This document shows positions 12,001 through 64,000 of a stretch of 64,000 nt of DNA, one piece after another. The first letter of the stretch is position 1. The number at the start of each line of letters is the position of its first letter. Origin of the DNA: a virus; IMG/VR virus record IMGVR_UViG_3300049846_000430, positions 49,401-113,400 of that record; one strand, written 5' to 3'. The notes beneath the pieces are model-generated. The model did not search any database, was not told the origin of the DNA, and worked only from the letters and a program-made list of their open reading frames with translations. The position numbers and the translations under genes are program-made.

Positions 12001-15000
12001 GAAGAAGGGGTTGATATTGATAATCTCTTTGGTAAACTTAAAGCTTGGACCAATAACAAAGAAGGTGCAAACTCAATTGGTGCTGTGGTACTTCCAAACA
12101 TTTACTTGAGTTTGATGAAAGAGTATGATATTTCAATTAGACGTGAGAAAGTAGGTAAGCTTGGTGAGACAATTCCTCAGATTACTCTTAATGGTTACAC
12201 ATTCAGACACTTTGGTAAAGATCCAGAAGATCCTCAAATAACTGGTAACTATGAAATTGTTGATGGTAAAGAAAATAAAAATGGTGCAAGAAGACAGTAT
12301 GTAATATCTGCTTTGATTACAGCAATGACAGATAACGCCAAAGAAAGACTTGCTGCTAAACTTGGTCTGAACAAAGACGCACTTGCTGTTGTTGCAAACC
12401 TTACTGCTTTGGGTGTTCCAATTAAAACTTCCATTCTTTTGATTAACAATCCAATCATTAAGGAAGAATATTTTAATGCTGTAAACAAAGAAGATCCTTA
12501 TGATCCAGGTATTAAATCTCTTATCAGAAGAAGACTTAAAAACTTAGATGAGGTATTTGGCCCAGATATTCCTTTGGTTCCTGTTACAGATGATCTTTTA
12601 AAAGAATCTATTATTAATGCTAGAGTTTTTAATGACTTTAGTCAATCAAAATCATTTAATGTTAATATACTTAAAGAGCTGAAAAAGGAAAATCTTTACA
12701 CACTTACTGATGCATCAATTGATAAATCAATACTTACTCAGTTCTATAATGCTCATAAACTTAAAACCTTTACCGGCAACATTGGAAATATTGTAAACTT
12801 AGTTTCTGATATTGGATCTTCTTTTGAAGATATTATAGGCAGAGAAGAGTCAATTAGAAAACTTGGTCTTGAGTTAAATGATGAAGATTTTGAAAATCTT
12901 GTTGATGATGATGATGCACCTGTACCTATAGATGTAAGAAAGTTGTTTAAGGGAGATACTTGGCAGGCTACTTATTACAAAATGTATAAGGAACTGACAG
13001 AGCAATTGCTTCCTACAGTATTCTTAAGTCAGACCAAAGCCTTTAAAAATATTTATGAAAAACTTAAGGCTGCTTTCTTGGGCGGTGATGATAGTAATTT
13101 CTTCATGACTCCAGAAAGACTTAATAAAATGAGTAAGGACTTCTTGTCTTATCTGACTATTAAGTCATATATGCAGGAACTTGGCAGATCAAATGGTATC
13201 AGAAAACAATCATTGGCTTCTCTTACTAATGAGCTTATATACCCACAAGCAAACTCAGATATTAACATCAACAAGATCATAAGTAATCTTAAAGCTAAGT
13301 ATGAAGCTGAGGGTAGAACTAATTATTTCTTGCAGGCTTTTGCTTACAATGACCCGGCTAGTAGTCCTAAAAACAATACAGGTCTTGATACAGTTATTGC
13401 ATCTACGTTTGCTAAACTTAGTGAAGCTCAGAAAATTAAAGTGCAAGATGGGTTTATTGATCTGTATGGTCCGGCTGAAACAAGGCTGGATGCATTGCAC
13501 ATCCTTCACTACATAATGGTAAAAGATGGTCTTCAGTTTGCTTATGGTACACTCCTAGATGCTATTACACCTTTTATACTTGACAAATACTTAAGTACAA
13601 TTAACAATACGCATAAGGCTTTTGAAACTGGTGTTGACACCAAAGCTTTTGAAACTGTATTTGGCATGGACTATGAAGATTTGATAAATGATTTCATCAT
13701 GAACTATATGGAATCAAACAAAAACAATTACCTGCTGAAGACAATAAAAAGTGTAGTTAATAAAAAGAACATACCAGTTTATAATCCTATTGTTAGTGAT
13801 GCTCAAATAACAGGTACTCTTACTTTAGGAGAAGTTGTATCTAACCCACAAAACTTTTATGTCTTTGGAGAAAACCAAAATGAAGAAGGTTATGTTGATC
13901 AGTTAGCTGTTAGGGGTCAGAGTAATACTTTTGGTCTTATTTTTAAAAAGGGTTTTGCTAGAAATAAAGAAAACTATTTTAAAGATAAAGAACTGGATGA
14001 ATTTGTTAAAATTTTTAGTGCTGGTATAGCATTTCTTAAAACTGTTGAAAAACCAATTCTATTTCCGGCAAGAATTATTGGTGCAAATGACAGAGAGTAT
14101 ATGCAGAAAAATACTCCTGAAATTTACAAGCATATCAAAAATACACTGATAGACAACTTTGATTACGATATTGATGGAGTTGAAAAAGTTGCAGGCACTG
14201 TTAGCAAAGCTGAGGCAGCAAAATCTCCTATAAGAATTGACAAGAGTGGTGCCGCAGAGAAATTATATATAGATTTGTATAATGGTATCTACCAAATTAA
14301 TATAGATGCTGAAGGTACCAAAATTCAAAGAAATGCTGTAGCAGGTCCTAAACAAAAAGAAATGAGAGAGGCAAATCAAAAGTATATACAAGATGCTGGT
14401 TTCAAAACAAGAACATTCATTAAAAAGGAAGGGGATAAAAAAGAATTTACCACAGAAATAATTTTACCTCCATACTTTAGAATTGAACATAAGAATCAGC
14501 TTGATGAAAGAACTTATGATTTTTATAAATTGGTTAAAGTCTATACATCAACAGGAATTGATACACAAAACTTGATATCAAAAGATCCAAACCGATTGCA
14601 CATTTTTGGAAATGCAGCTATGTATGTCAAAGTAAAAATGAAAGGTTCTAATCAACAGAATCCAATAGGGTTTATGTTTGATACTGTAAACTTTAGCAGA
14701 CCTGATTACTTTGACGTAAGAGAAAATGTTAAGAAAAAGAATCAAGAAGAAGGTGATGAAGATATTACGATTCCAGGAGATGGAGAAATAGATGAGGGTA
14801 ATGTAGATTTTAGCAGCATGCCTGGAGCAAGAGTTGATGAGAATGGAATAACTGTAAATGGTAAATCTGTTACAGTTAATGAAATGATTGCAGCAACTGC
14901 CGCAGTAATTACTTCTACAGAAGATGTTACTGAATCTGATTCCAATGTAGAATCAGAAGTTGCGGGTCCACCTGTTAAAGCTGGAACTCTTACTAGTTTG

Positions 15001-15213
15001 CTTGATGATGATGATGAAGCATCTGATTTGTTTGATTTCTGGACAGAGAATATTGAAGATAATAAAGAAGCAATAGCAAAACTGAAAGCTAATGGGATTA
15101 AAGGAAAGAATGATGCGGATCCAGAAATTCAAGACTTCTTTAATGCAAGACGTAATAATAACTATAAGAGTGATCAAGATTTTCTAGATTACATTAAAAG
15201 TTGTATCTTATAA
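1..15213 (+). CDS. Giant virion protein containing crAss-like virion RNA polymerase and zincin protease domain (5'-truncated, >5070 aa)
   Basis: Frame is open from base 1 (NFDRYYAHPKF...) so the true start is upstream. GADFDIDKL (DFDID at 11473-11487) preceded by RIPSQ matches crAss-like/phi14:2 gp66-type vRNAP. HEAFH zincin motif at 6205-6219 with downstream EEYLAD. Confidence 0.9.
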   Translation, partial: NFDRYYAHPKFEELGWQPYANNEEYYNANSSTWDDSVRMWGQFSGLFGTGFVSGYRSIADLFDGDDYLSTADLDSATEFSDAMRIGMSSREGFMAGINNFALNSAYTFGIIGSIAAEELALALMASTGVGAIPAAARTGANVTRAGRAIVNFFDVGKALNATRQMLKGLNQADRARDFYNTMRSGGKFVGDFFLPETMAAIRSMNTTQNGVQNLSNLSKAARGFGGFYRDLRGINLAMSESKLEAGMVYNDKFADISANLNEKNGGTGLTPTDVAKAHDVAAKSSFATLWWNAPLIYLSNKIVLGTALGGMNKTLGRVFDEKLTGFGKRLIRTKPLTDASGKISRDVFEDAGEGMFGGLLPSMKRIKGYTVGGSLKAAGHGAARYFAANLTEGAQELAQEAIAVGTKDYYTQLFEDPAAAGYDVFKTALSSAISSQMNAQGFETFMSGFMMGGVVQGPQKLLFQGLPNAMQYTFNREAYDKYKTAKNDYIQNLVKTHNEAWNTMADDPTAMFDPTKLNFLVQKQVASEMKQSAYVDDVFGFIDAKDFGKFNQMYTIFSNGTANQFKDQLQGFQSLTDEELNQAFPGFKADIKSGKFRERIDTTLNQIDETEKAYNDAQNKFQNPFDSRKFKKGTKEFIDEALKERAFEHAKYLYMFTQDGFKRAVERAESIYSEMASEPVISKIAANDLSVLMDIDSINNELAVLLKEASIEATTPEEEKIAADKTERMMHLTEIKKVLTDPGNLNSNGILDRRKINKLYKPFQNYVNFLAKSKNDFVNKDAVVNALKKISDYNALKERAKVYDKAIEYLNNPERLTEMVNRTRAIFEDLFRNNKTMFEKNIKKHVKNLEANEFLNKLVKIGVYPNADQVVEFLKTGDVNVLKEFFSEDGVVDVMNDPKRFLQIAGLVRSYNEITGKEEVKEETEEEPEEEAAEPGAKQKSFEDTLDDLDIDTSSMPGVKPKPAKETVVETNDPSQSPYGKKILEEVYNKYRAEQLAIGNTYLPYNEWAKTEKTQTVIAALQALKVAWAKTVTKESLAKRGTDVSTPQLAEAAIKFVIKQDVGFSQWLQSKKDEPSVRKVLDEAGLTFDALAPVAPGKNEGKDSVVKDKKNTKWHKKGPGVNILKITSSDNEGNKTTYYQLVDNNGDGLSEAILKAAGVSINGTYSKAKAAEEAQKKILDAMPDTTPFQFDGVMVRFGATVTDNKGKEFIVLGTPSKVAKGGKLFLLPKEKQTLKGVKEREKASIKVSEGEFNGFYTVEDLKFSEPVDKNVSKLTVVDLLKSYPRNNRGEERAEAQKRFDIIMNAVTAEEFENDIEFVVRRNEGAGSETGPYRAGSKEPNPQIIKTTETYNIGIRIGNPALQQRLDAMLEEKGFVPSDSADGIIGFMPNNSYKLLDKNGKQISILSLDPENFDQYFGGRGTLQDIKTAYATQQLLVNAISELIGEASFAVVKPSELKDKVTFSFQSLYKQDALPISLDQLNDYYGTEDGKGYTVDGKNVIIYDNKRVRTEKGYSYSTTVVSNLKPGKRLSDLSDKIEDELKASGKWEKATDPVAGLGRYVIVIRQPNGELTLAQLKQNKIDKEEVYGFIKELVQRAQDTVDNNIENIDDLPRNALGVITNTKDARAKNLDYNYKWNEEFNNKFYLAEMPGIDVEMKVTAWGRIEISFYDKKNKESLTAAPLKIFPELFAKALADPQELLDKIQSLLDSDPTLKKQKISVQPQNFRASFPESRDAQVIIDNTKTQLDPRVRFDYKIIVTGDSSQVQALANISTPITPEDITAAQGPVSEDTLEHIAKKLNTPGSTLSKYEQEIYNINQSRIEKIRKDLAGKSSLDTSEDTYDGINQMSDDEFNSYADDEFMMLPLDIKNQIAAKILKTGVASLSARERQVMNSDAGSMINGLVSKLVSEAVNTPSEVAPVTEETFTQGNEIEQIKAEIASLKLQIDAREELLMKESSNPKESFTKINNDSELKALKKRRNDLNNKLIANKILPAAPLTPYDGETIQQFVDWATNNLPDFISIADINTLRGNLMGKGVRVGAFVLSLADIAGGINVQGTLYTGASSPFRYHEAFHAVFRMLLTDEQIKKYLALGKKELLAKYKAEGKSYQAEMEKFRNTAPMYREMTPERLEQEFIEEYLADKFEEFKKSPAKTQTAPEIKSLFQRIIEWIKSIFKRFTKNELNSLYENIDSGKYRTTAVQDNMFTNSLVKGITVEANKLIPIETYEDERGNIGYKYMDPAAADGLIANIAAMYISREDKAIAASKNGLINRGEILDETIIDFMVMYNPEAEHNSTLDRSLWAPLFEKFNALKDYTEFVKQGVIERLALLDVSAEEGAYDFEQFEQEAGLRNVSDYKRGVEQIGGFESISKELRRYIGSTTITNADEFGNTELTPGESLIVPVDFNEAYNGILKAVKNTTNPLDFFTKMYFFGQTNRQTEAVVRRLFQDIGVTDEQILNDDLPASVKNPLLFQRVLKGFESFRLDYIFIHTNPKDGKTYIYSAANRDDTSAQIDRWSAAYDIKFQNMVNNIKTWRETKRILARVEKYFNPAEAFETLSDRRLQIISRYLSRNLYELTGIKLSAGYIEFSIASGIINKTRYQNALLRANQKSEALNYDDIKQFAIQIEAAYNDAIKNRGYTSIFSDTAGVGMPARLRRMAFGNAPFDETIGNSVFKNPNGDLVYAHQAATYHLKAITDLNDVETLERLQESDPFLFNNILLNSPAFKALAAEDRLRVLRVAGSKKSALDKTDEGNYAETGGINVNDEATTYGDSSPRQFILNLINSYTYNYNHTTGKNDTIIAIDPITGEEKETAIAPSLIRVIEASNTGDMTGLPVIQTITTDDNGETVLKDETIDMFYDEVKREYERIRREGKEETRTKDLLEGYNAKDGVRVDKNADSKDDQSRAYKFTKTGTLLKEFEGTAGDKSKIKDPTMPEETAQRLVEGTQSIIVRRAKAASTIGLTRKGASGSATVTTKDKKGNDVNTGFTIINRGQVIVTEKNFKKILDSLGDAVSVDKTDTHKYKFEYKNKVGYVETPDLASFLNGYEPFYVYDMYKEGTEIPKNVLKDIEKSDSQPIDYKSRLEAYARNSDVEDLSFEEAIVKMNTTVADFKQFLNTRLMDEFKEFSKTLDEIKAKKGLSKFVTFGLTNEDGRTNSETARAAAQLNLTTDVEYNLMQIFFNDWLNTKALNQILLGDSAMSLKDAVDEIKRAKMQNAAGKSAAATIIAPEYGINHIFQQMSLFTFTDTEFEKIYSGANAKGERGDAQMYLTPKGLRYILFGLGNLNEAQVKLLDKIERGDKITADEFFGTVGEDGFKDQGAVFNSLKLVYGDGKTYLKMSAVILTKELTSRKVNGQWVAKETRKELHNMRVKLEQFEEENQTVTIAGGRSAVKMLKQNVLRDTDMFSEGLLSKDNATILDTNFMRLQLVNPSNKIVITDPTQMKTLITSEQSDNVEVLLPGSDKVTTLGAIREKYNEAISNRSKLKFINRRNLIFNFDIDVAMDELHKSVKSGQITANLFSFLQYATESLKASQSSSNILEFFNPENQDRYNLNNPLTITKFEQLFLRYFNNGVFSEKIPGHSVALMSDVGVKIYRRVFSVETLEDGTIVPDRFEVIREKVWEAMPDKPPVVFDVTDNPTLQGLEEAIKASGKKGVVIIDNLRHNLKEYNEKGKYTKTRYSEALIPAHFKDVMTHVEDSVDDPKSAEEITQEWKAWINEERWSPKAKAYIIRQNIEDFDRNRSKKEFAKAFGYTYEENEKGNVKFTAREKSKYMNEIPDAVAKMFGIRIPSQDKHSAVNIKVVDFLPVFYGSTGIFPPQLIEISGADFDIDKLYIHIKQWFMENGDFVEYGTAKNDKDGYQQYINYVNQEVYKGGSAFAEAFEKYMSDQGVTERNQLSIEDILDARDAGFNADAVDALMMLGLPVTLKQYKAYKKKNQSEPYEAPYNNQVLDYKFALLGNEHVTNTPGRNVPISYEPADLEPLKEVWDFIKDELPELAELVKEEGVDIDNLFGKLKAWTNNKEGANSIGAVVLPNIYLSLMKEYDISIRREKVGKLGETIPQITLNGYTFRHFGKDPEDPQITGNYEIVDGKENKNGARRQYVISALITAMTDNAKERLAAKLGLNKDALAVVANLTALGVPIKTSILLINNPIIKEEYFNAVNKEDPYDPGIKSLIRRRLKNLDEVFGPDIPLVPVTDDLLKESIINARVFNDFSQSKSFNVNILKELKKENLYTLTDASIDKSILTQFYNAHKLKTFTGNIGNIVNLVSDIGSSFEDIIGREESIRKLGLELNDEDFENLVDDDDAPVPIDVRKLFKGDTWQATYYKMYKELTEQLLPTVFLSQTKAFKNIYEKLKAAFLGGDDSNFFMTPERLNKMSKDFLSYLTIKSYMQELGRSNGIRKQSLASLTNELIYPQANSDININKIISNLKAKYEAEGRTNYFLQAFAYNDPASSPKNNTGLDTVIASTFAKLSEAQKIKVQDGFIDLYGPAETRLDALHILHYIMVKDGLQFAYGTLLDAITPFILDKYLSTINNTHKAFETGVDTKAFETVFGMDYEDLINDFIMNYMESNKNNYLLKTIKSVVNKKNIPVYNPIVSDAQITGTLTLGEVVSNPQNFYVFGENQNEEGYVDQLAVRGQSNTFGLIFKKGFARNKENYFKDKELDEFVKIFSAGIAFLKTVEKPILFPARIIGANDREYMQKNTPEIYKHIKNTLIDNFDYDIDGVEKVAGTVSKAEAAKSPIRIDKSGAAEKLYIDLYNGIYQINIDAEGTKIQRNAVAGPKQKEMREANQKYIQDAGFKTRTFIKKEGDKKEFTTEIILPPYFRIEHKNQLDERTYDFYKLVKVYTSTGIDTQNLISKDPNRLHIFGNAAMYVKVKMKGSNQQNPIGFMFDTVNFSRPDYFDVRENVKKKNQEEGDEDITIPGDGEIDEGNVDFSSMPGARVDENGITVNGKSVTVNEMIAATAAVITSTEDVTESDSNVESEVAGPPVKAGTLTSLLDDDDEASDLFDFWTENIEDNKEAIAKLKANGIKGKNDADPEIQDFFNARRNNNYKSDQDFLDYIKSCIL

Positions 15214-15216
15214 TAT

Positions 15217-18200
15217 ATGGCGGCAAGATGTCACAATAGAGCAACCCCTGAGTATAAAGCTTTACTTCAGGAGTTTAAAACAAACATTGCAACAGACAAT
15301 GTTATAACCAGTTGGCAAGATCTTAATAATACAAATGAGTTTCCTACTGTATCACAAGCACAAGAGTTTTTAAAGCAGTATAAAACAAGTGAGTCTTTAA
15401 GAAAAAGAGAGTTTGCTGAAGCACTTCTTTCTAACTTATCAAGATTGGGATATGCTAAAGCTGGTAAAAATGGATATTATGTTACAAACAGCAATCAACC
15501 AGGCGGCATATTTGATGAGAATGTTTTAAACTCTAATAGAAACAAAATCATCAACTACTTGATGATGAATAATATTCCTGTTGACTCAGTAAGCTTTTCT
15601 GACACAACCAAAGGAGAAACATACTTCATATCTATTGATGATGCAAGTCTTTCACAAAGAGATATATTACCTAAAAGAAGAGGGTTTGATGAACCAAAGA
15701 CAGTTAAGATTTTAAATCATCTCAATAATCTTTTTCCAGAACTTAATATTCAAATTGCTACAATCCAAGAAGCAAGAAACTATTATGATTCTTTGGATCC
15801 TGCAATGAAGGCTAATGTAAAGTTTGAAGATGTCAAATCTTTTTATGTAAGAGGTAAGGTTTATTTGGTAAGAGGAAGAGTAACAGATAACACAGCCATA
15901 GAAGAAGTACTTCACCCATTTGTTGATGCACTCTTTATTCAGAACAGAGCCTTGTTTGATAACTTACTTAAAGAAGCAAGAACAAACTTTCCAGAATTAA
16001 ACAGAGAGATTAACAGAGTTTATTCTGAGATGAATGGTTTTACTCAAGAAGAAAGAGATCTGGAACTTGTAACTCAATCTCTTACTAGACATTTTGCAGA
16101 TGAGTATGAGAAGGCACCTACAAAAACATTCATGGATAGAATCCGTGAGTTTCTTGAATGGTTTAAAACTGTTATTAATGATTTTCATAAGTATCTGACT
16201 GGTGTAACAATCCGTAGAGCAGATCAAATAGTATCAGCCACCACTCCAATTAAACCAGGTGTTGCAGAACTATTTGAATCTAATCCTAAATTAGCTACTT
16301 CTGTATATGAAGCTTTAGGATTTACTGAAAAAAAATATGCAGATAAACTAAAAGGAATTGCACAAAGAAGAAGTTTAGCTACTAAAGAGGATCTTGAAAA
16401 GTCTCAGCTTATTAAAGATCTGGTAGTAAATGAGTCTCAACCTAATGAATTAAAACCAAATAAATCTGATAAAAATCTAGCTGCTATAATGCTTTATGGT
16501 GAGAGATATGATGATTTATCAGATACAAGAACATCTGAAGAAGATTTTGAAAATTCTTCAGATTATAAAAAGTCTCAGTCTGAGTTATTAGCTTACAGAA
16601 TATTAAACAATTTAATGTTTGATGTTGAAGAATTAGCTTATTATGAAGACATCATCAAACAATATCCGGAATATGCTTCAACATTATCTACCAATGAAAA
16701 TCCTGTAAAAGATTTTTTTGAAAATGATATATTTGAACAAGCCGAAAAAGAAAAGTTTGAAATAACTTCAAAGCAAAAACAACAAGCTCAACAACTATAT
16801 TCCCAATATCTTGATACTATATTTCCTGATAGTAAAGTAAAGGATATTGTTTATCATGGTACAAATTCTAAATTTGATAAATTTGTAATACCTGAAAGAA
16901 CTTTTTCAGAATATGATGATGAATTAAAAAAAATGGTTCAGCTAAAAGGTAAAGGGGCTGCTTATTTTACAGATAAAAAATCTTTAGCAGAACAATCTGG
17001 AAAGAGTAAAAAAGCAGAAAATGTTTTATCTGCTGTTATAAATTTAAAAAATCCAAAAGAAACAACTAGTCAAGTTGGAGTAGATGATAATATTATAAAT
17101 CTAAGAAAGAGTTTTGATGGGTATGTTTATACTAATATAAAAGCAAACTATATAGTGCAAGCTGTATTTGAACCAGAACAAATCCACATACTAGGTAATC
17201 AAGAAGACATAGAAGGATTTAAAGAGTTTGCATCTAAGGAAATACAGGTTACTCCTACATTAGCAGTTGGAGAAATTAAACCGATAGCTAAACTTACTGA
17301 TATTGCAAAGCTTCTGAATACCAGCATGTTTAAGTTTGATCTTCAAACTGAAGATAGTTTAAGAGTTAGATATGCTTTGAGTGATAGAAAACAAAAGCTG
17401 GTTGACAAAGCATTAGACTCATCTAACGAGGTTCAGAAGAATGTAATTAATAGATTGTTTGGTATAGCCAGGACAAGGGATGAAAGTATTGATTCTCTCT
17501 CTGCAAACATATACAGCCCTTATGAAGATTCAAGTATTGTTGTTCTAAACAAAGCTGATCACACATATATTGATATAACTACAGGTGATATATATACCTC
17601 TGTAACTACAGCAATCAAAGGAAAGTTAAAGAATGAAGAGGATGTGCAATTAAATGTTACACTTGGTAATGACTTTGATTTTATCATGGATGGTATTGTG
17701 TCAAACATGACACTGAAAGATATCCTTGAGTCTGGAGAGATAAAGATTCTAAATGAAGAGCAGGTTGAAAGAGCTTTTAATGATCTTCAAGAAAAAATTC
17801 AAGACCTTAGATCTGATGGTTCAGTTGCAATATCTCAAGTAGTATTGTTTGATCAAGCCACTAAGATAGCTGGTACTGCTGACCTTGTACTCATTACTCC
17901 TCAAGGTAAACTTAAAATTCTTGACTTAAAAACAAGTAAGAGTTGGTATGCCACCATGAGAGAAGAATATGATAAGGAATGGAATCTAGATGATGATAGT
18001 GTTTTAAAATCCAGAGGTATTGCTGATAAACTTTCTACAAGACAGCAACACAACCTGCAGGTTAATCTCTATAGGAGAATGGCTGAGAACATGGGTTATG
18101 ATGTAGCTACAGATGAATATGCAACATCAACCTATCATATCCATGTAGACATTACCGGTAAAGGTAAAGAACAGAAGTTTGAGGGAACATTTGAAGTTGA

Positions 18201-21200
18201 TGGTTGGGTGCCGCATCCCCCTAGTCAGAACTCTGTTTATGTAGATAAACTAATTCCAGTTGATTACATGAATAGAGATCCAGAAATGACTGCTGCAAGA
18301 CTTGGTTTAGATTCTCCAGAAGATTTTGATCCTGATAACTTTTTAGATCCTGAAGAACAGTTGCCTGAAGATCTTACAGATGAAAATGACTATACTGAAT
18401 TCAACACTATCTTTAATGCTCTAAATCAATACAAGACCGGTCTTTTAAATAGAAGACAAGCAATTGAAAGAATAAAGAGTGGTATCTTTATGGATAGAAG
18501 AACTGAACAGATTATTGAAAATATAGATAATACTGTTGGTGCTATTATGGTTGCAATGAGTGAGGGTGGTGCATTAGTATCTTCCACATATACTGATCTT
18601 CTCAGAGATGCAATCAAAGAAGTAGATCAGTTTACAGAGTACATGCTAGACCCGTTAAACTTTGACAAGAATGAGTATATCAACTATGCACTCAACTTTG
18701 ACAGGTTCTTGGTAACATTCAACGGCCTTACTGAGATACAAAAATCAGATGCTGTAAATGCCACACAAGCAAAACTTCTTCTTACTCTTGAGACAAAACT
18801 AAGAAGTCTTGGCGGAACAAAAACAAAGACTGGTATCATTGATGCAGCTATTATGAACTATGTAAAGGAGACTGTTAGAAATACAAGTAGCAGAAACTTT
18901 ACAGAAGCTGAGCTTGATGAGTTAATGAGAACAGCAAAAGATATAGGCATCTTAGATCTTGGAACCAGAGATTTAGCTACATCTACAGATACACTTCTTG
19001 CTATAATGGATAAGATCTATAAGGCCAAGAAACAAGAGCTTTATGATAAGATTGATGCTAGAAATGAAGAGATAATCAATGCTGCAAATAAACTTTTAAA
19101 ACTTTCACCAACATCAAATAGAAATGAGATTTATGATTTTATGTTGGAGTTTGATGATCAAGGAGGATTCACTGGCAGATATGTAAAAGCTTTAGGTAAG
19201 CAGTATTATGATAAGATTGATAAACTAAGAGCTGAACTTTTTGATGAAGAAGGTAACTGGAAAGAATACAGAGAGATTGATGATTTAAGAACAGCCAAGA
19301 AAGAAGACATTGATTATAATAAAGCTTTATATAAAGCTAAGCAAGCTTATACAGATTTCTGGAGAGCAGAAACAATTGGGACAAACGATAACCCAATTGA
19401 TGGGGAATATCATGGATATACTTCTGAATTTAAAGAAGCTAGGGCAAAGCATGAGGTTTTTGTTGCTGAAGGAAAACATGGTTACTGGGTTAGAAAGAGA
19501 GGTATTTCAGACAAAGCATATCTCAACTATAAACTTAAATACTTTGATACATTTGAAACAAAGTTTGCTGTTAAAAAAGATGGTGTCTTTACTGGTAAGG
19601 TTACAGATGGTACTATCCAAGTTCCTAAAGTAAAATACAGATTTGCCAGAGAGATTAGCTCTAAGGGTGAAGATATGCGTAATGCAAAGTATACAGCAAT
19701 CATGAATCCTACTGATGCTTTAGGTGAAGCAAGAAAGGAATTCTATGAAGTGTATGTTAAAAACTTTGAGAATGATCTTCTTAATAAACTTCCAACTGGT
19801 GTAAGAGATCAGATGCTTGGGAGAGTTCCTCTTGTGCAGTCTAATTTGGTTAACAGTCTTAAGGAAAAAGGAAACCTGTTTACAAAACTCTGGAGTAAAA
19901 CAACTAGATCTGTAAGAAACTTAACAACAGAAACTTCTCATATGAGAAGAGTTGTTGTTGATGAGACAGGTCAGTTTGTTGATACGCTTCCCATATTCTA
20001 TGTAGGTAATACTAGAGATGATCAGGCACTTGAAATTCTTGAAGCAAAGCTGGACCAGCTTAACAAAGAAAGAAAGATGGGTGCTGTCAATGCCATTGAG
20101 TATAAGAAGCAAAGCATGGAGTTAAATGGGAAGATTACTGATATCAAAAATAAACCTGCAACTAATGAGATAAGCAGAGATATGGGAGATAGTCTTCTTA
20201 AGTTTAGTGCTATGGCTGAGCATTATGAAACCATGGGTGCAATTGAAGACACCATGAATGCTTTTCTATATGTCATTGAAAATAGACAGTATGAATCTGC
20301 AGAAGATAATGTTACCAGAATAGCTAGATACGGAAAAGAAAACATAAAGGTATTTCAAAAGAAAGGTAGTACTGAGGCCAATGTCATAACAAGAGCTAAG
20401 AAATTTATGAGTATGGTCTATTATGATAGTGATGAAATAACAAAAGGTAAGTGGGATAAAATATCTGATTTCATTATCAATACATCATCCATGACATATG
20501 TAGCCTTTAACCCTTTTGGTAATATAAATAACTATGTGATGGGTAGACTTAACAATAACATTGAATTGTTAGGTCAAAGATTTTTTACAGCTAAGTCCGG
20601 ATTAAGAGCAACACAAGAGTTTAATAAAAGAGCTTTACCTGATGTAGCTAAAAGATTTGGAATGCATGGTTACAAGCTTGGTATGGGAGGTCAATATGAC
20701 CCAACTAAACCAATGAGTAAATATGAAGGTTTTGTTGACATGTTTAGAATGATGGATACAAAGTCTGATATCCGTGAGACAAGAGGAAGTACTGCTCAGA
20801 AAAGTTGGTTTGAAAGTTTCTTTATTGAAAAACTTGGTTATGGTCTTCAGGATGCTGCAGAATACAACGTGCAGACAAAGGTTGGTATGGCCATGGTTAT
20901 GGATACCATTTTAAAGAACAAGACAACTGGTGAAACACTTAGTCTTTATGATGCTGCTGAATTTGATTCAGTAACACATAAACTTAAATTCAAAGATGGA
21001 TTTGATACTATAGTTAAGAAAAACGGTGTTGAAGTAGCTTTTGATGACAAGTTTAGATATGATCTTAGAAACAGAATCCGTGAGGTAAACAAACAGATTC
21101 ATGGTAACTATGCAAGAGAAGACAGGATGGTTATTCAAGCTAACGCACTTGGTAGACTTGCTGCACAATTTCACAAATGGGTGGCACCAGCTATTAGAGC

Positions 21201-21891
21201 AAGGTTTGGAAGAGAATACTTTGACGAAAACTTAGGATGGATGGAAGGAAGATACAAGTCCTTCTGGCAGTTCATGGGTTACTTCTTTAGAAATCTTGAT
21301 AAAGTAGAAATGACCGGTAAAATCATTGGTCCTAAAATGAAGGAAGGTTTTCTTAAAGATTATGGTTATAAAGGAGACGGTTCTCAGGATGATGCAAAAG
21401 CTGAGAACAAACTTTATAATATGTACAGAACTCTTGGTGAATTAGGTATTATCATTTCAATTATGGTGGTAAGAGAAATACTTGGAGGAATGTTATCAGG
21501 TGATGATGATGATAATGAAACTATAAAAAGACTTGAAAATGCTATTCTATTCCAGGCAGACAGATCTGTAAAAGAAATGAAGACTTTTATACCTGTTATT
21601 GGATTTACAGATATGTATCAAATGGCAAAAAGTCCTGTTGCTTCAACAAGAACTCTTGCGGAATGGGGACAAGCACTTGGTAGTACTATGCTTACCGGAT
21701 ATAATGGTGTAAAGTATATGGCAACAGATAATCCAGAGTACTGGGAAGGTAATAAAGATATTGTTTACCAAAGAAAACCAGATAAAGGAAATCTTAAGAT
21801 GGCAAAAGAATGGAAAGATGCTATTCCAATTTTGTATACCTTTCAGAGATGGGCTAGCTATGATACTGTATCAGACTTCTACATCAAATAA
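15217..21891 (+). CDS. Large polyvalent virion (ejected) protein: degenerate zincin, ART-like domain, PD-(D/E)xK nuclease, helical C-terminal region
   Basis: IEEVLHPFV; IVYHGT...AYFT...INLKNP...FDG...VFEPEQI; IAGTADLV...ILDLKTS...QVNLY; directly follows the vRNAP gene. Confidence 0.8.
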   Translation: MAARCHNRATPEYKALLQEFKTNIATDNVITSWQDLNNTNEFPTVSQAQEFLKQYKTSESLRKREFAEALLSNLSRLGYAKAGKNGYYVTNSNQPGGIFDENVLNSNRNKIINYLMMNNIPVDSVSFSDTTKGETYFISIDDASLSQRDILPKRRGFDEPKTVKILNHLNNLFPELNIQIATIQEARNYYDSLDPAMKANVKFEDVKSFYVRGKVYLVRGRVTDNTAIEEVLHPFVDALFIQNRALFDNLLKEARTNFPELNREINRVYSEMNGFTQEERDLELVTQSLTRHFADEYEKAPTKTFMDRIREFLEWFKTVINDFHKYLTGVTIRRADQIVSATTPIKPGVAELFESNPKLATSVYEALGFTEKKYADKLKGIAQRRSLATKEDLEKSQLIKDLVVNESQPNELKPNKSDKNLAAIMLYGERYDDLSDTRTSEEDFENSSDYKKSQSELLAYRILNNLMFDVEELAYYEDIIKQYPEYASTLSTNENPVKDFFENDIFEQAEKEKFEITSKQKQQAQQLYSQYLDTIFPDSKVKDIVYHGTNSKFDKFVIPERTFSEYDDELKKMVQLKGKGAAYFTDKKSLAEQSGKSKKAENVLSAVINLKNPKETTSQVGVDDNIINLRKSFDGYVYTNIKANYIVQAVFEPEQIHILGNQEDIEGFKEFASKEIQVTPTLAVGEIKPIAKLTDIAKLLNTSMFKFDLQTEDSLRVRYALSDRKQKLVDKALDSSNEVQKNVINRLFGIARTRDESIDSLSANIYSPYEDSSIVVLNKADHTYIDITTGDIYTSVTTAIKGKLKNEEDVQLNVTLGNDFDFIMDGIVSNMTLKDILESGEIKILNEEQVERAFNDLQEKIQDLRSDGSVAISQVVLFDQATKIAGTADLVLITPQGKLKILDLKTSKSWYATMREEYDKEWNLDDDSVLKSRGIADKLSTRQQHNLQVNLYRRMAENMGYDVATDEYATSTYHIHVDITGKGKEQKFEGTFEVDGWVPHPPSQNSVYVDKLIPVDYMNRDPEMTAARLGLDSPEDFDPDNFLDPEEQLPEDLTDENDYTEFNTIFNALNQYKTGLLNRRQAIERIKSGIFMDRRTEQIIENIDNTVGAIMVAMSEGGALVSSTYTDLLRDAIKEVDQFTEYMLDPLNFDKNEYINYALNFDRFLVTFNGLTEIQKSDAVNATQAKLLLTLETKLRSLGGTKTKTGIIDAAIMNYVKETVRNTSSRNFTEAELDELMRTAKDIGILDLGTRDLATSTDTLLAIMDKIYKAKKQELYDKIDARNEEIINAANKLLKLSPTSNRNEIYDFMLEFDDQGGFTGRYVKALGKQYYDKIDKLRAELFDEEGNWKEYREIDDLRTAKKEDIDYNKALYKAKQAYTDFWRAETIGTNDNPIDGEYHGYTSEFKEARAKHEVFVAEGKHGYWVRKRGISDKAYLNYKLKYFDTFETKFAVKKDGVFTGKVTDGTIQVPKVKYRFAREISSKGEDMRNAKYTAIMNPTDALGEARKEFYEVYVKNFENDLLNKLPTGVRDQMLGRVPLVQSNLVNSLKEKGNLFTKLWSKTTRSVRNLTTETSHMRRVVVDETGQFVDTLPIFYVGNTRDDQALEILEAKLDQLNKERKMGAVNAIEYKKQSMELNGKITDIKNKPATNEISRDMGDSLLKFSAMAEHYETMGAIEDTMNAFLYVIENRQYESAEDNVTRIARYGKENIKVFQKKGSTEANVITRAKKFMSMVYYDSDEITKGKWDKISDFIINTSSMTYVAFNPFGNINNYVMGRLNNNIELLGQRFFTAKSGLRATQEFNKRALPDVAKRFGMHGYKLGMGGQYDPTKPMSKYEGFVDMFRMMDTKSDIRETRGSTAQKSWFESFFIEKLGYGLQDAAEYNVQTKVGMAMVMDTILKNKTTGETLSLYDAAEFDSVTHKLKFKDGFDTIVKKNGVEVAFDDKFRYDLRNRIREVNKQIHGNYAREDRMVIQANALGRLAAQFHKWVAPAIRARFGREYFDENLGWMEGRYKSFWQFMGYFFRNLDKVEMTGKIIGPKMKEGFLKDYGYKGDGSQDDAKAENKLYNMYRTLGELGIIISIMVVREILGGMLSGDDDDNETIKRLENAILFQADRSVKEMKTFIPVIGFTDMYQMAKSPVASTRTLAEWGQALGSTMLTGYNGVKYMATDNPEYWEGNKDIVYQRKPDKGNLKMAKEWKDAIPILYTFQRWASYDTVSDFYIK

Positions 21892-54408: not shown

Positions 54409-54568
54409 AATGATGTACCGTTCCTATCTACTTTATGAACATACGGTACCAGATGCTTCCTCATAACCTTCGGATAGGTAAGTTTTGAGGATGAGAAGTC
54501 CTCTGTGTTGTAGTGGTTTATTAACACTCTTGACACATACATTCCTTTCTCAAGGGAACAACACTTTG

Positions 54569-54655
54569 TGACCAGTAAGGGATTTGAACCCTCATCCTCC
54601 ATACAATGGAGATGCTACCCTAGGTGGTATTTATTCCCACTTACACCAACTGGTC
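54569..54655 (-). ncRNA. tRNA-like RNA with D-loop insertion and abnormal anticodon loop
   Basis: 7-bp acceptor GACCAGT/ACTGGTC; T arm GAGGG-TTCAAAT-CCCTT. Confidence 0.6.
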
Positions 54656-60311: not shown

Positions 60312-60763
60312 ATATTTAGTTTGATTAGGTTTCAGAATTAAAAGGGCTACCTTGATCATCTTAGGTTCCTCCCTTTTGTAGATTTGACGTACACATAGCA
60401 CTGCATACACTGACCTTTTAAATAAATAATACCATTGTTACTTTATTGCTCTGTTCACAATGATAGAAGACTTACCATTTCCCTTACTTTGTCAAATCAA
60501 GTTTTTCAGGAATACTCTATTCTTCTGCTTTTGTCTTACCCCTCTGCACTCAGTTGTTATGACGTAACAGGTTCGTCTAAATGGTCTCCGAAGTCCAAAT
60601 AACAACTGCTCACCCTTGGGAGCTGATTAATCAGTGTTCTCTACACTCAATGATGAAAAGAGTGATGGGAATTGAACCCATATTAATCAGGTGGTTTCAC
60701 ATCTTACATTTGCATTACCACATGCTTATTCTAGCGGTTTATTTCACCCGCCAAAATCTTCAA

Positions 60764-61768
60764 TGTAAAAAGTCTTTATATCCACGTGAGAATGGTGCAT
60801 TAATAATGGGAGAGATTTGTGTTGTAGGTACTCTCCCGGTGACCTGCTGACTAGGCTTTCCTTTTGGCTCTTACATCCCAAAGTCATAAGGGAACGGCAC
60901 ATCTTAGTTTGTTTCCATAAATTTTGGTGGCTAACCGGATTCAAGGGATTTACATTTCCAAAGCCATAAGGAAAACACCACTGTGAAAAAAAACTGGTGT
61001 AGGTGGACGTTTTCATCTCCTAATTGACCAGATAGAGAAATAAAGGCTGAGTGTTGACCTTCATTCTGATAATTTTGTAACCTTTCGGTCACTTACACAC
61101 ACTCTGGATTACTCCAAAGTATATCAGATAGCGAGTAGACTAACTACCATGTACTTTCCTGCTTATATATGCTTCCTTTTCAACCAAGTGTCTTGCGGAC
61201 CAAAGAGGATGCCTCCTCACCTTAGATTTACTCATTCTACATCACATTCTCATCCTTGCGGGACTTACTGTGCCCTCATATTACAGAGGGATAACGCTAT
61301 TTTCAGCTGGAAAGATGGTTGGCTTTTGCTCAATTTTTTAATTGTTTAAGTAAACAATGCCAAGATCCAGGATGTGCAACCATGCATCTATCATGCTTCC
61401 TTTTGAGAAGTTTAGATAGTACACCCCAGTGTAGATTACCAGTCTACGTTGCTTTGTGATACTGTTACCGCACCACTTGCAATGGTCTCAACCCTTGAGT
61501 TTTTGGTAAAACTCTTGAGTCAGTACCTACAGATTCCCTTATTGTGCTTTCACACTCAAATCCCTTGGCAGGGATTCAACACTCAGATGATAATCCTCTG
61601 TGTTGATTGTCTGCATGCTTACATGGATTAGGTTTCCCTAACGCAAACTCACCTTGTTCAAGTGGTTCACTTTAATCACCATTACTGGTTTTATCCTAAC
61701 GACCATAAACAGCCGTGTCTGTTAGTTCAGAGCAAGCTCCTTAACGCATACACCGTGGATATTTTACA
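60764..61768 (-). ncRNA. Putative large structured non-coding RNA (GOLLD/ROOL-like class, family unassigned)
   Basis: No credible ORF; end-to-end pairing; many GNRA-capped hairpins on the - strand; 11-bp long-range loop pairing. Confidence 0.65.
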
Positions 61769-61922
61769 ATCCTGTAGGTAGACAAGTATGCTTAATGGTC
61801 TTTAAGGGTAATAGACCAAACCCTGTTCATTATGTACTCAGTTGAACTCTGGCCAGTAACTTACTGGATAGGATGCATTCACTAGATTAGAGTGAGAACA
61901 ATGCCCAAACAAACTCACTTGG

Positions 61923-61966: not shown

Positions 61967-62350
61967 TCAGTAGAATATCTTATATCTTTTGGGATCTTCA
62001 TCCACTGGACCTGTAGCATCCTCAAGTGGAGGAATAGGAGTGATATCTAGATACCAGGTATCCAGACTACGTTCATGAGAGCACTCAAGCCACATACCAT
62101 TCTCTAAGAGAACTTTGTCAGCAATGAGGTCATGCTTGATTACCTTGAGGGCAACAGAAGCATAACTTTCAGGTCTAGTGAATTCATAACCAGCAGGTGG
62201 TTTAGGAAAGAAAGGACTTTCCTTACCAACTCTGGTAACAAATGATTCACGCTCTGTGATCATGCCTTTAGCAAGCTTAGACACGTACACAAACAACTCT
62301 GGTCTCTGAGCAAGTACCACCTGCTCAAGAAGGTTTTGAAAATTTTCCAT
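61967..62350 (-). CDS. Hypothetical early protein, paralog of 62415-62783
   Basis: Shared LEQVVLAQ.PELF.Y..KL.K.MI...FP..P.GY.F..PESYA.....VIKHD.I. Confidence 0.8.
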   Translation of the reverse strand: MENFQNLLEQVVLAQRPELFVYVSKLAKGMITERESFVTRVGKESPFFPKPPAGYEFTRPESYASVALKVIKHDLIADKVLLENGMWLECSHERSLDTWYLDITPIPPLEDATGPVDEDPKRYKIFY

Positions 62351-62380
62351 ATGATTTTATTTAATTTAGGTTTCAAAAGG

Positions 62381-63081
62381 AAAGCAGTTTAAACACATGG
62401 CTTAGGTGTTAGGATTAGAAGATGTCTTCTTCTACAAGAACCTTTTTGGGTTCTTCAATAGGTTCAAGCTCATGAATCCATGAAGACTCACGATCACTGT
62501 AGTTCTTAGCTTCACGCCAAACACCATCAATAACCAAGACTTGATTTGTGATCTTGTCATGTTTGATAACGGCAGCTTTGATAGTAGCATAAGACTCAGG
62601 GTTCTTGAACTTGTAACCATCTGGAGCTTGAGGAAACAAAGAAGAGTCTTTGAATACTCTAATGAAAACATGGTCCATGTCTTGGATCATGTTCTTGCTA
62701 AGCTTCTGAGCATAGATGAATAGTTCAGGATTCTGTGCGAGCACAACTTGCTCAAGCACAGATTGAAATGTTGTGTTTTCCATATGTGTTTTTAGATTAG
62801 GTTCAAATTGAAAGCAGTTTAGACACTTGCTTAGGTGTAGGACTTCATCCCATAGAGAGTTGTTTTTTCTTTACGTACCATGGCTCACAAGCGGTACAAC
62901 CTTTCCAGGAATTAAAAGTTGGATTTCATAAGACAGTCTCAATTTATTACACGCAAGTCACTAGCGTGGAATCAAGAACCTTCTAGTAAGGATTACCAAC
63001 ATATCAGTGTCAGTTTTACCTAAGTTAAGTAACTAGAATTTTAGAAGTGAAAGCAGTTTATAACCACATGCTTAGGTGGTT
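62381..63081 (-). repeat. Three copies of a ~30-nt H-type pseudoknot motif (62381-62410, 62811-62838, 63050-63081)
   Basis: CAC-CTAAGC-N2-3-GTG...TAAACTGCTTT with covarying stem 1. Confidence 0.85.
62415..62783 (-). CDS. Hypothetical early protein, paralog of 61967-62350
   Basis: See paralog. Confidence 0.8.
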   Translation of the reverse strand: MENTTFQSVLEQVVLAQNPELFIYAQKLSKNMIQDMDHVFIRVFKDSSLFPQAPDGYKFKNPESYATIKAAVIKHDKITNQVLVIDGVWREAKNYSDRESSWIHELEPIEEPKKVLVEEDIF

Positions 63082-63154
63082 TGGTACAAGAAGGCACATA
63101 TATCAATATATAAAATAATGATACACCTTACCTTTATGCTTCATAGAGAACAGC

Positions 63155-63199
63155 TGGTTCCCTATGCTGGAATTGAACCAGCTTTAACCATTTAGGGAA
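63155..63199 (-). ncRNA. tRNA minihelix-like RNA (acceptor + T arm + encoded CCA)
   Basis: TCCCTAA-ATGGTTAAA-GCTGG-TTCAATT-CCAGC-ATAGGGA-A-CCA. Confidence 0.6.
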
Positions 63200-63410
63200 T
63201 ATTAGCTATATAAAATTATTATAGCTTGTGTAACAAAAGAGAAAAGAGAATATGCTTGAATGTGTGTGAGTATGTATACCCACCCATAAATACATCCTTG
63301 CATATGCCCTTGCAGTACCCCTGCAGTAACTATATACAGCAGTTTGAATAGACAAGTGTGTAGAGACCGCTACACTTTAATCCCTGGACTGTTAGGATCT
63401 TGTTAAAGAG

Positions 63411-63448
63411 AAGGACTGACTACAGCTCAGTGGCTATAATCAGTCCTT
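63411..63448 (-). other. 16-bp RNA hairpin (terminator or RNase III-type site)
   Basis: Continuous only on the - strand, through two G-U pairs. Confidence 0.6.
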
Positions 63449-63464
63449 GAAAGGTTTCTGCAGA

Positions 63465-63854
63465 TTACTCTGCAGATTTGGCCTTCTTGGCCTTGGGCTC
63501 CGGAGGAGTGATGGAGTCTTCAAAGACTTCATCAGCCTCCACCCAGAGCATGCCGGTGGGCTTACCCTCCTTGTCTTTGACAGGAGCGGTAGAGAACCGG
63601 AAGCCTGGGATAGGAGTGCCAGGACCTTTAGCAAGGAGCTTGCTTGCAAGCCTTTTAAAGTCCTGGTGGTCCTCCCGCACAGGTAGACCTGTTTCAGCGT
63701 CTACCAGACACAGGATCCCGAAGGTGACCTGTTTCTGAGTGCGGGTTTTGAAGGCCATGCCTTCAATGGAGCATGCCACTGTTTCCAGTGGTGAGTCAGT
63801 CACAATAATCATAGATTTTGTGATCTTGCGGAAATAAACTTGTTTGTTTTGCAT
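63465..63854 (-). CDS. Hypothetical early protein
   Basis: ATG 63854 after an A-rich leader; visibly more GC-rich than the rest of the window. Confidence 0.65.
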   Translation of the reverse strand: MQNKQVYFRKITKSMIIVTDSPLETVACSIEGMAFKTRTQKQVTFGILCLVDAETGLPVREDHQDFKRLASKLLAKGPGTPIPGFRFSTAPVKDKEGKPTGMLWVEADEVFEDSITPPEPKAKKAKSAE

Positions 63855-64000
63855 GATATATGTAATTAAAGGGTTATTCATGTATGGGGTGCCAACTGGC
63901 TAAAAAGTAGGTGGGGAGCGGAATTTGGGGACCCCTTAAGAACCACACACATAAAATGAAAAATATGGTAGGAAAAATTTTTATCGGTTCCGGGAGTGGA

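Follow-up and report, generated by a model that had tools for sequence, protein, structure and literature searches.

Transcripts other than tRNAs that end in a tRNA-like manner have been documented so far in plant mitochondria and among mammalian long non-coding RNAs. The t-elements of plant mitochondria are defined by the sequence GGTTCRANYCC and direct cuts by RNase P and RNase Z (Forner et al. 2007, PMC1920247); the ends found at t-elements are transcript ends made by these two enzymes, and an excised t-element can be stable (PMC1920247). RNase P needs the T-loop of its substrate and not the D-loop, and a CCA end blocks RNase Z (PMC4919913). The mascRNA of MALAT1 and MEN-beta is a tRNA-like module that terminates a long, structured non-coding RNA on its 3' side, and the RNase P cut at the 5' side of this module makes both the mature end of the upstream RNA and a small CCA-ended RNA (cited in PMC4919913). 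RNase P cuts YrlA RNA that has a 7-bp acceptor stem, CCA is added to this RNA, and the tRNA fold has been proposed to shield it from exonucleases (PMC4201824). Phage T4 encodes RNAC and RNAD, small stable RNAs of unknown role from its tRNA gene region (PMC3014915), and the GOLLD RNAs of phages and prophages are nanocage RNAs found in tRNA islands, sometimes with a covalently linked tRNA (Kretsch et al. 2025, PMC12286853; PMC12990946). How the RNAs of phage islands of the GOLLD and ROOL kind are cut out, stabilised and related to the adjoining tRNAs is a puzzle.

Here we analyse a 44-nt tRNA top half with an encoded CCA, referred to below as the minihelix, in the phage sequence IMGVR_UViG_3300049846_000430 of IMG/VR; the window is the final 64 kb of this 113.4-kb contig, which is 97% complete. 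The minihelix resembles t-elements, which are non-decoding, combine the GGTTCRANYCC core with an acceptor-like stem and lie between functional RNAs (PMC1920247). Unlike them it lies in a phage and not an organelle, lacks any remnant of the D or anticodon arm and is known here from sequence alone; moreover t-elements acquire a non-encoded C or CCA, whereas the CCA of the minihelix is encoded (PMC1920247). The position of mascRNA at the end of a structured RNA is the one that we propose below for the minihelix, but mascRNA is eukaryotic, has a full cloverleaf-like fold and receives its CCA after transcription, and the two have no sequence relationship; a sensitive Rfam scan gave no match to the mascRNA model. 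It shares with YrlA's tRNA-like domain, and with the acceptor/T-arm minihelices that RNase P accepts as substrates, a coaxial helix of 7 + 5 bp, a T-loop and a 3' RCCA, which make up the minimal RNase P set (PMC4201824, PMC4919913). YrlA, however, has Ro60/Rsr as its partner and possesses both a stem that binds Ro and a D arm, and identity with a Y RNA was rejected because the TROVE gene (PF05731) is absent from this phage genome and no Rfam Y RNA model matches. To our knowledge, the RNase P minihelices are laboratory constructs rather than known genes. RNAC and RNAD of T4 are, like the minihelix, phage-encoded and set in a tRNA cluster (PMC3014915). In a comparison of size and sequence, they were of a different size and showed no sequence relationship to it. 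The termini of both T4 RNAs are tRNA-like. The association of GOLLD with tRNAs is also found here, the setting being a tRNA island, but the minihelix is separate from the GOLLD RNA. Literature searches returned no description of a phage-encoded tRNA minihelix.

Anatomy and predicted folding of the minihelix

Sequence, predicted fold and descriptor statistics place the minihelix at 63155..63198 on the minus strand. Read from 63198 to 63155 it runs TCCCTAA / ATGGTTAAA / GCTGG TTCAATT CCAGC / ATAGGGA / A / CCA, that is, a 5' acceptor strand (63198-63192), a linker of 9 nt (63191-63183), a perfect T arm (63182-63166), a 3' acceptor strand (63165-63159), a discriminator A (63158) and an encoded CCA (63157-63155), all on the minus strand. 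The core of the T arm, GGTTCAATTCC at 63169-63179, is of the GGTTCRANYCC type. The first-pass annotation of this DNA had described an acceptor with six of seven pairs, a 9-nt linker, a perfect T arm and a discriminator A and CCA in register, and this anatomy is exact on the minus strand; the end coordinate that it gave, 63199, falls on the T at -1. The acceptor has six Watson-Crick pairs out of seven and, at 7:66 beside the T stem, an A.A mismatch. The T at -1 is able to pair with A73, which would give seven contiguous Watson-Crick pairs (predicted pair probability ~0.6).

As an isolated 44-mer, the RNA is predicted to fold as described at -12.9 kcal/mol, with 62% of the ensemble in this structure (z = -2.0; 8 of 200 shuffles fold as well). 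When the RNA ends at the CCA, the predicted probability of the minihelix and its acceptor stem is ~0.7-0.95, both for the window copy and for that of the only relative found, the contig L002 described below. With at least 60 nt of downstream RNA, a different outcome is predicted for the window copy, in which a 9-bp hairpin that this copy alone possesses (63143..63165, minus strand; ATAGGGAAC at 63165-63157, loop CAGCT, GTTCTCTAT at 63151-63143) displaces the acceptor stem. Because this hairpin abolishes the acceptor stem, the window copy would need co-transcriptional folding or 3' processing for the minihelix to form. The L002 copy has a predicted minihelix probability of ~0.8 in the context of the full block and of ~0.3 in one intermediate context, with 60 nt on either side. 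Other possible pairing partners for the 3' acceptor strand exist.

tRNA character of the minihelix

The T arm has the conserved residues G53, T54, T55, C56, R57, A58 and C61, with the acceptor stem directly abutting it and N73 followed by CCA. The GGTTCRANYCC core lies in a non-canonical tRNA-like fold between a structured block and downstream cassettes, and the sequence appears to hold the features of an RNase P minihelix substrate, namely layers of 7 + 5 pairs, a T-loop and a 3' ACCA, with one A.A mismatch. Only 9 nt separate the 5' acceptor strand from the T arm, and there is no D or anticodon arm. Neither ARAGORN nor the Rfam tRNA model RF00005 (E<=10) calls a tRNA at the minihelix, and a relaxed ARAGORN run returned solely an implausible 88-nt model. 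A tmRNA was rejected, as ARAGORN -m finds none and the acceptor strands here are just 26 nt apart, whereas a tmRNA builds its acceptor stem from distant 5' and 3' ends that enclose a tag reading frame and pseudoknots. So was a retroelement 3' tRNA-like tag (e.g. of the Mauriceville type), which calls for a reverse transcriptase starting at the 3' CCA, since reverse transcriptase (PF00078) is absent from the genome.

ARAGORN finds two genuine tRNAs in this phage, a tRNA-Arg(TCT) and an odd tRNA-Leu(TAG). They end in ...GGGAAC-A-CTAA and ...CTGGTC-A-CAAA and so have no encoded CCA; the lack of CCA that had been noted for the tRNA-Arg therefore extends to both.

How far the shape of the minihelix departs from chance was judged with a descriptor (acceptor strands of 7 nt with at least 6 pairs, a linker of 4-14 nt, a 5-bp T stem and the loop T[TG]C[AG]ANN) run on 200 dinucleotide-shuffled genomes. 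When the CCA is left out of the descriptor, there are ~1.9 matches per shuffled genome; with CCA in register 0.045 are expected per shuffled genome, and 3.5% of the 200 shuffles have at least one match. The real genome has exactly one match with CCA in register, which is the minihelix. By this measure alone the shape is modestly beyond chance, which is suggestive and not overwhelming. The GGTTCRANYCC core occurs 5 times in the genome against 0.36 expected (14-fold enriched), and four of the five cores fall within a 9-kb stretch of the minus strand, in the two tRNAs, the minihelix and a T arm at 60665-60681. An Rfam model that behaves like an antisense tRNA aligns with the minihelix at its closing stem and its T arm, skipping 41 central model positions, and it also matches the antisense strand of true tRNAs. 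Because the cores cluster and this model aligns, and yet no tRNA is called by ARAGORN or Rfam, we regard the minihelix, on these sequence features, as tRNA-derived and not as a tRNA.

The conserved block that ends at the CCA

The minihelix forms the end of a non-coding block of ~295 nt (63155..63448, minus strand) that is 97% identical to positions 2244-2536 of L002, a viral contig of 12.9 kb (E 6e-142), and the flanks of which are 70-80% identical to L002 or unrelated. Both borders are sharp. On the 3' side homology to L002 stops at the last A of the minihelix CCA, and the adjoining sequence is a variable insert (62839..63154, minus strand; 316 nt here and an unrelated 455 nt in L002) within which lies c3, a degenerate copy of the leader repeat of the cassettes described below. 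On the 5' side the border is the base of a 16-bp hairpin (63411..63448, minus strand), recognised as an inverted repeat, in the fold and in the alignment, just after a hairpin that is non-homologous between the two phages. The 16-bp hairpin may cap a stable RNA at its 5' end, or it may act for the upstream ORF as a hairpin of the intrinsic-terminator kind. That ORF (63465..63881, minus strand; 138 aa), which the non-homologous hairpin follows, has no family match, and its close homologs are 107 aa only and 77% identical. The minihelix lies ~265 nt past it and ~370 nt before the next ORF and adjoins no start or stop codon; the neighbouring ORFs have no Pfam or PHROG family.

The block has a predicted fold of -90.3 kcal/mol (z = -5.25), as good as none of 200 shuffles, in which 61% of bases are paired. 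All 8 differences between the window and L002, substitutions or indels, lie at unpaired or weakly paired positions, and one of them turns a T.T mismatch into a pair; with two sequences compared, this avoidance of paired bases is only suggestive. The minihelix itself differs at one base, in the linker (63183, A to G), and ~75 nt upstream of it are identical in both phages. Within these lies a hairpin or palindrome, AGCTATA-9-TATAGCT (63204..63226, minus strand), which contains, 19 nt before the minihelix, a perfect TATAAT (63223-63218) that may serve as a -10 element or as an operator. Recent exchange, and not selection, could account for how alike the two copies of the block are. A small coding sequence in the block found no support: a 33-aa ATG ORF is broken in L002, and a 49-aa TTG ORF stays open there, which is uninformative at 97% identity.

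CTGCAG-type motifs recur at window 63273-63345 and 63440-63461 (minus strand): the hairpin after the upstream ORF has two copies of TCTGCAGA, and in the block there follow ACTGCTGTA, TACTGCAGG, TACTGCAAGG and ATATGCAAGG; one pair of the motifs is a perfect 8-bp palindrome in L002. They could be protein-binding sites.

The block is rare. Searches for related loci returned L002 alone, and an exact 25-mer and two other segments of the block, searched against viral contigs, have a true copy only in L002 (which is the same as L008). A pattern of linker, T-loop and ACCA, run over 2.9 million viral and 241 million metagenome records, gave no true copy beyond L002; seven other matches lack the pairing and are not minihelix copies. 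The block is also absent from the full records behind L011 and L013, two contigs that carry other parts of the island. L002 aligns across the contig ends (window 63155-63997 and genome 98-9342), with 94% identity over 9 kb on the far side. Since it thus bridges the end and the start of the contig, the genome is circular or circularly permuted, despite its "linear" IMG/VR record, and a position near the contig end therefore has no meaning for the minihelix.

The surrounding RNA island

On the minus strand the order is the 138-aa ORF, the hairpin, the block ending in the minihelix, the insert, two small ORFs, GOLLD and a second T arm. The GOLLD RNA is unannotated and extends, by homology to L002, over ~830 nt (61039..61871, minus strand). 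A full-length match to Rfam RF02032 at 61044-61429 scores 132 bits (E 9.9e-36), just under the gathering score of 150, and the region is the one that had been set down as a '~1-kb end-paired RNA' from the sequence. It is 84% identical to L002 over 846 nt and 96% identical over 753 nt to L011 (IMGVR_UViG_3300044620_000987). Because this identity is found despite unrelated flanks in L011, GOLLD behaves as a horizontally exchanged RNA module. A true tRNA-Met lies ~0.4 kb upstream of GOLLD in L011. In the window GOLLD is 1.3 kb downstream of the minihelix on the same strand, and since two small ORFs and the variable insert separate them, the minihelix is no part of the GOLLD RNA.

The two small ORFs (61967-62350 and 62415-62783, minus strand) are paralogous, both starting MEN. 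An element of ~60 nt (...CCTAAG-CATGTG-TTTAAACTGCTTTC...) is repeated at 62372-62409, 62802-62838 and 63041-63094 (minus strand), with a weak fourth copy at 63338-63348, and sits ~20-50 nt upstream of both ORFs. No ORF goes with the third copy, which resembles a decayed cassette, and the repeats look like cassette leaders or promoters rather than free-standing pseudoknots.

The second T arm, ATGGG-TTCAATT-CCCAT (60665..60681, minus strand), belongs to a sister element and not to the minihelix. As had been noted for the element at 60657, its T-loop, TTCAATT, is identical to that of the minihelix. To take that element for a comparable minihelix is misleading, as its '3' acceptor strand' covaries with downstream sequence. 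The T arm and the hairpins after it (window 60599-60705, minus strand) are conserved at positions 1780-1954 of L013, where the sole paired change, CACTC...GAGTG to CATTC...GAATG, speaks for a T-arm hairpin and, after it, another hairpin rather than an acceptor stem. Since the sister element thus lies in a conserved structure with a compensatory change, T arms of this island are built into conserved structures and are not merely decaying. Matches to the Rfam tmRNA models are confined to the T arm at 60665-60681. Compared with L011, the window has at 61041-60622 an insert of ~420 nt between GOLLD and a downstream structured element (60528-60621). Just upstream of the 60657-type element in L013 lie a Hatchet ribozyme (3088-3239, minus strand; 81.7 bits, above the gathering score) and a twister-P1-like match (2124-2187, minus strand; 49.4 bits, below the gathering score).

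Discussion

We propose, tentatively and with a probability of about 0.4, that the minihelix derives from a tRNA and serves a structured phage RNA as its end or as a handle for processing. It would be the 3'-terminal module of a discrete, conserved and structured non-coding unit of ~295 nt. In a transcript of this unit, the host machinery for tRNA ends would recognise the stacked acceptor/T helix together with the T-loop and the 3' ACCA: RNase P would cut on the 5' side of the acceptor stem, and the encoded CCA would act as an anti-determinant of RNase Z, so that 3' trimming would stop at the CCA. The outcome would be a defined, exonuclease-resistant end that divides the upstream structured RNA from the downstream variable cassettes and GOLLD. 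The product may be either a ~295-nt RNA with a tRNA-like 3' end or, as in the cut described for mascRNA, a ~250-nt RNA and a released 44-mer.

Several observations argue for such a handle, namely the anatomy with CCA in register, the conserved block with its sharp edges, the predicted fold of that block (z = -5.25) and the fold of the minihelix, which holds when the RNA ends at the CCA. As GOLLD is 96% identical in L011 amid unrelated flanks, RNA genes in these phages do travel as sharp-edged modules, and the island is rich in RNA-processing devices, related islands having the Hatchet ribozyme and the twister-like match. The first-pass annotation had offered three roles, a decoy, an aminoacylatable mini-RNA and a processing tag; the last fits best, the minihelix being the exact 3' terminus of the conserved structured module. 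Against it, there are only two copies, 97% alike, and hence no covariation in the minihelix stems; no ORF starts or ends next to it; the acceptor has its A.A mismatch and the 3' strand its rival partners; the 9-bp hairpin downstream of the window copy is predicted to abolish the acceptor stem in long transcripts; and the CTGCAG-type repeats and palindromes of the block could be binding sites for protein at the DNA level.

If the minihelix does mark the end of a structured RNA, phages would reuse the host tRNA-end machinery for transcripts that are not tRNAs, and acceptor, T arm and CCA without an anticodon arm would make a simple descriptor for phage RNA ends. If it is a relic only, it still documents the erosion of tRNA genes in these islands, and even then RNA genes of the island, the block and GOLLD, move as sharply bounded modules.

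The relic is the alternative that survives best, as a possible though doubtful account. A CCA-encoding tRNA gene would have lost its D and anticodon arms in one internal deletion of ~32 nt, leaving an inert remnant, undecayed and without function, and, with the same doubt, the border at the CCA would be an old border of gene or module that has survived as a joint in the mosaic. The linker, A-TGG-TTAAA, corresponds to position 8, the last part of an anticodon stem and a variable loop of 5 nt, as in a true tRNA-Lys (L015) with the segment TTTGG-TTAAT-GTGGG-TTCAATT, that is, anticodon-stem end, variable loop and T arm. Of the description as a "purpose-built top-half tRNA mimic", the top half without an anticodon arm and the CCA in register stand, and the purpose does not follow, as the same linker is also the product expected of a deletion of ~32 nt. 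We estimate that, if 32 nt were deleted at random from a tRNA, the two acceptor strands and the T arm would stay untouched in about one case in four. An identical T arm is found in a genuine phage tRNA-Gln that encodes its CCA, and this arm is all that a blastn search of a phage collection found to be shared with that tRNA; a broader T-arm pattern gave tRNA-like genes that were for the most part unrelated. The island is strongly mosaic: inserts and a degenerate cassette adjoin the minihelix, which occurs in only two contigs among the 2.9 million viral and 241 million metagenome records. Set against decay, all 24 stem bases and the T-loop are intact with CCA in register, the minihelix lies inside a block far better conserved than its surroundings in which differences avoid paired bases, and the sister T arm at 60665-60681 is held in a conserved structure with a compensatory change. 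The only relative, L002, carries the same minihelix and not the full tRNA that a recent deletion might have left there. Descent from the phage's own tRNA-Arg found no support, local alignments being not significant (p ~0.08-0.09), though the acceptor stem of that tRNA, wobble included, is mirrored by GGGAAC in the 3' strand and GTTCTC downstream.

It is unlikely that the block acts as DNA, as a regulatory or replication region, a recombination joint or an att site of ~295 bp in which the tRNA-like shape is incidental or forms the att core. Its direct repeats of the CTGCAG type, the 8-bp palindrome (perfect in L002), a long inverted repeat, an AT-rich stretch and the perfect TATAAT would suit such an element, as would its location near the point where transcription diverges; and the break in homology coincides exactly with the tRNA-like 3' end, a pattern also seen at att sites that target tRNAs. 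However, no tyrosine or serine integrase (PF00589, PF00239) is encoded in the 97%-complete genome, there is no duplicated 3' fragment nearby, and two patterns, T arm with 3' strand and variable loop with T arm, have no exact match in 185,579 species genomes, a set that may not include the true host. Together the missing integrase and matches led us to reject attP or a host-tRNA fragment as the identity of the minihelix. An att core would moreover leave the 5' acceptor strand unexplained, with the proviso that by our estimate ~1 in 10 such fragments find a pseudo-partner by chance.

Improbable, too, is a free CCA-ended RNA of ~44 nt with its own promoter that acts in trans, as a decoy for toxins or sensors of the acceptor end or as a chargeable mini-substrate. 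The perfect TATAAT 19 nt upstream would give a tRNA-like leader of ~12 nt, the ~75 nt upstream are identical in both phages, the CCA is encoded whereas the phage tRNAs rely on its addition by the host, and the predicted fold is stable on its own. Yet the minus strand at the minihelix, when scanned, showed neither a complete sigma-70 site or -35 element nor a terminator, the sequence TATAAT is common in a genome this rich in AT, and nothing similar is in print. Nor does the phage have a partner gene: Ro60 is missing, RtcB and RNA ligase were rejected as RNA-repair partners because both are absent from the genome, and so, for the same reason, was a CCA-adding enzyme of the phage.

Decidedly improbable is that the minihelix is the working end of a novel type of phage RNA, whether as the CCA-ended, possibly chargeable 3' tag of a structured RNA of ~295 nt or as a released 44-nt top half acting in trans, for instance as a decoy for toxins or sensors of host defence that read or modify the acceptor ends of tRNAs; it would then exemplify a wider and undescribed use of tRNA top halves near RNAs of the GOLLD type. 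Chance resemblance without tRNA ancestry is hardly credible: a shuffled genome yields about two minihelix shapes that lack CCA, 3.5% of shuffles contain the full shape with CCA, and the isolated fold has a z of only -2.0, but the GGTTCRANYCC core is 14-fold enriched and clustered with real tRNAs, and the minihelix is conserved in L002 exactly at a module border.

Other features of the phage

The tRNA-Leu(TAG) called by ARAGORN (54568-54655, minus strand) has a poorly paired anticodon stem and D arm, and the Rfam tRNA gathering score is reached by the tRNA-Arg only and not at this locus; it may be a non-canonical tRNA. Unannotated elements of tRNA size are present in the tRNA islands of three unrelated phages (L018 2422-2497, L020 6149-6218 and L021 8583-8660, all on the minus strand). 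They have perfect 7-bp acceptor stems, T arms, a common ATATTGGTTAATGTRGG-TTCAATT segment and non-canonical middles, and none of the three is called by ARAGORN or Rfam. Two giant ORFs on the plus strand, of 5032 aa (115-15213) and 2224 aa (15217-21891), were also seen, the latter with a weak match to the polyvalent-protein ADP-ribosyltransferase domain PF18760 (E 2e-4, below the cut-off). The phage DNA polymerase is ~35% identical to those of Vibrio phages.
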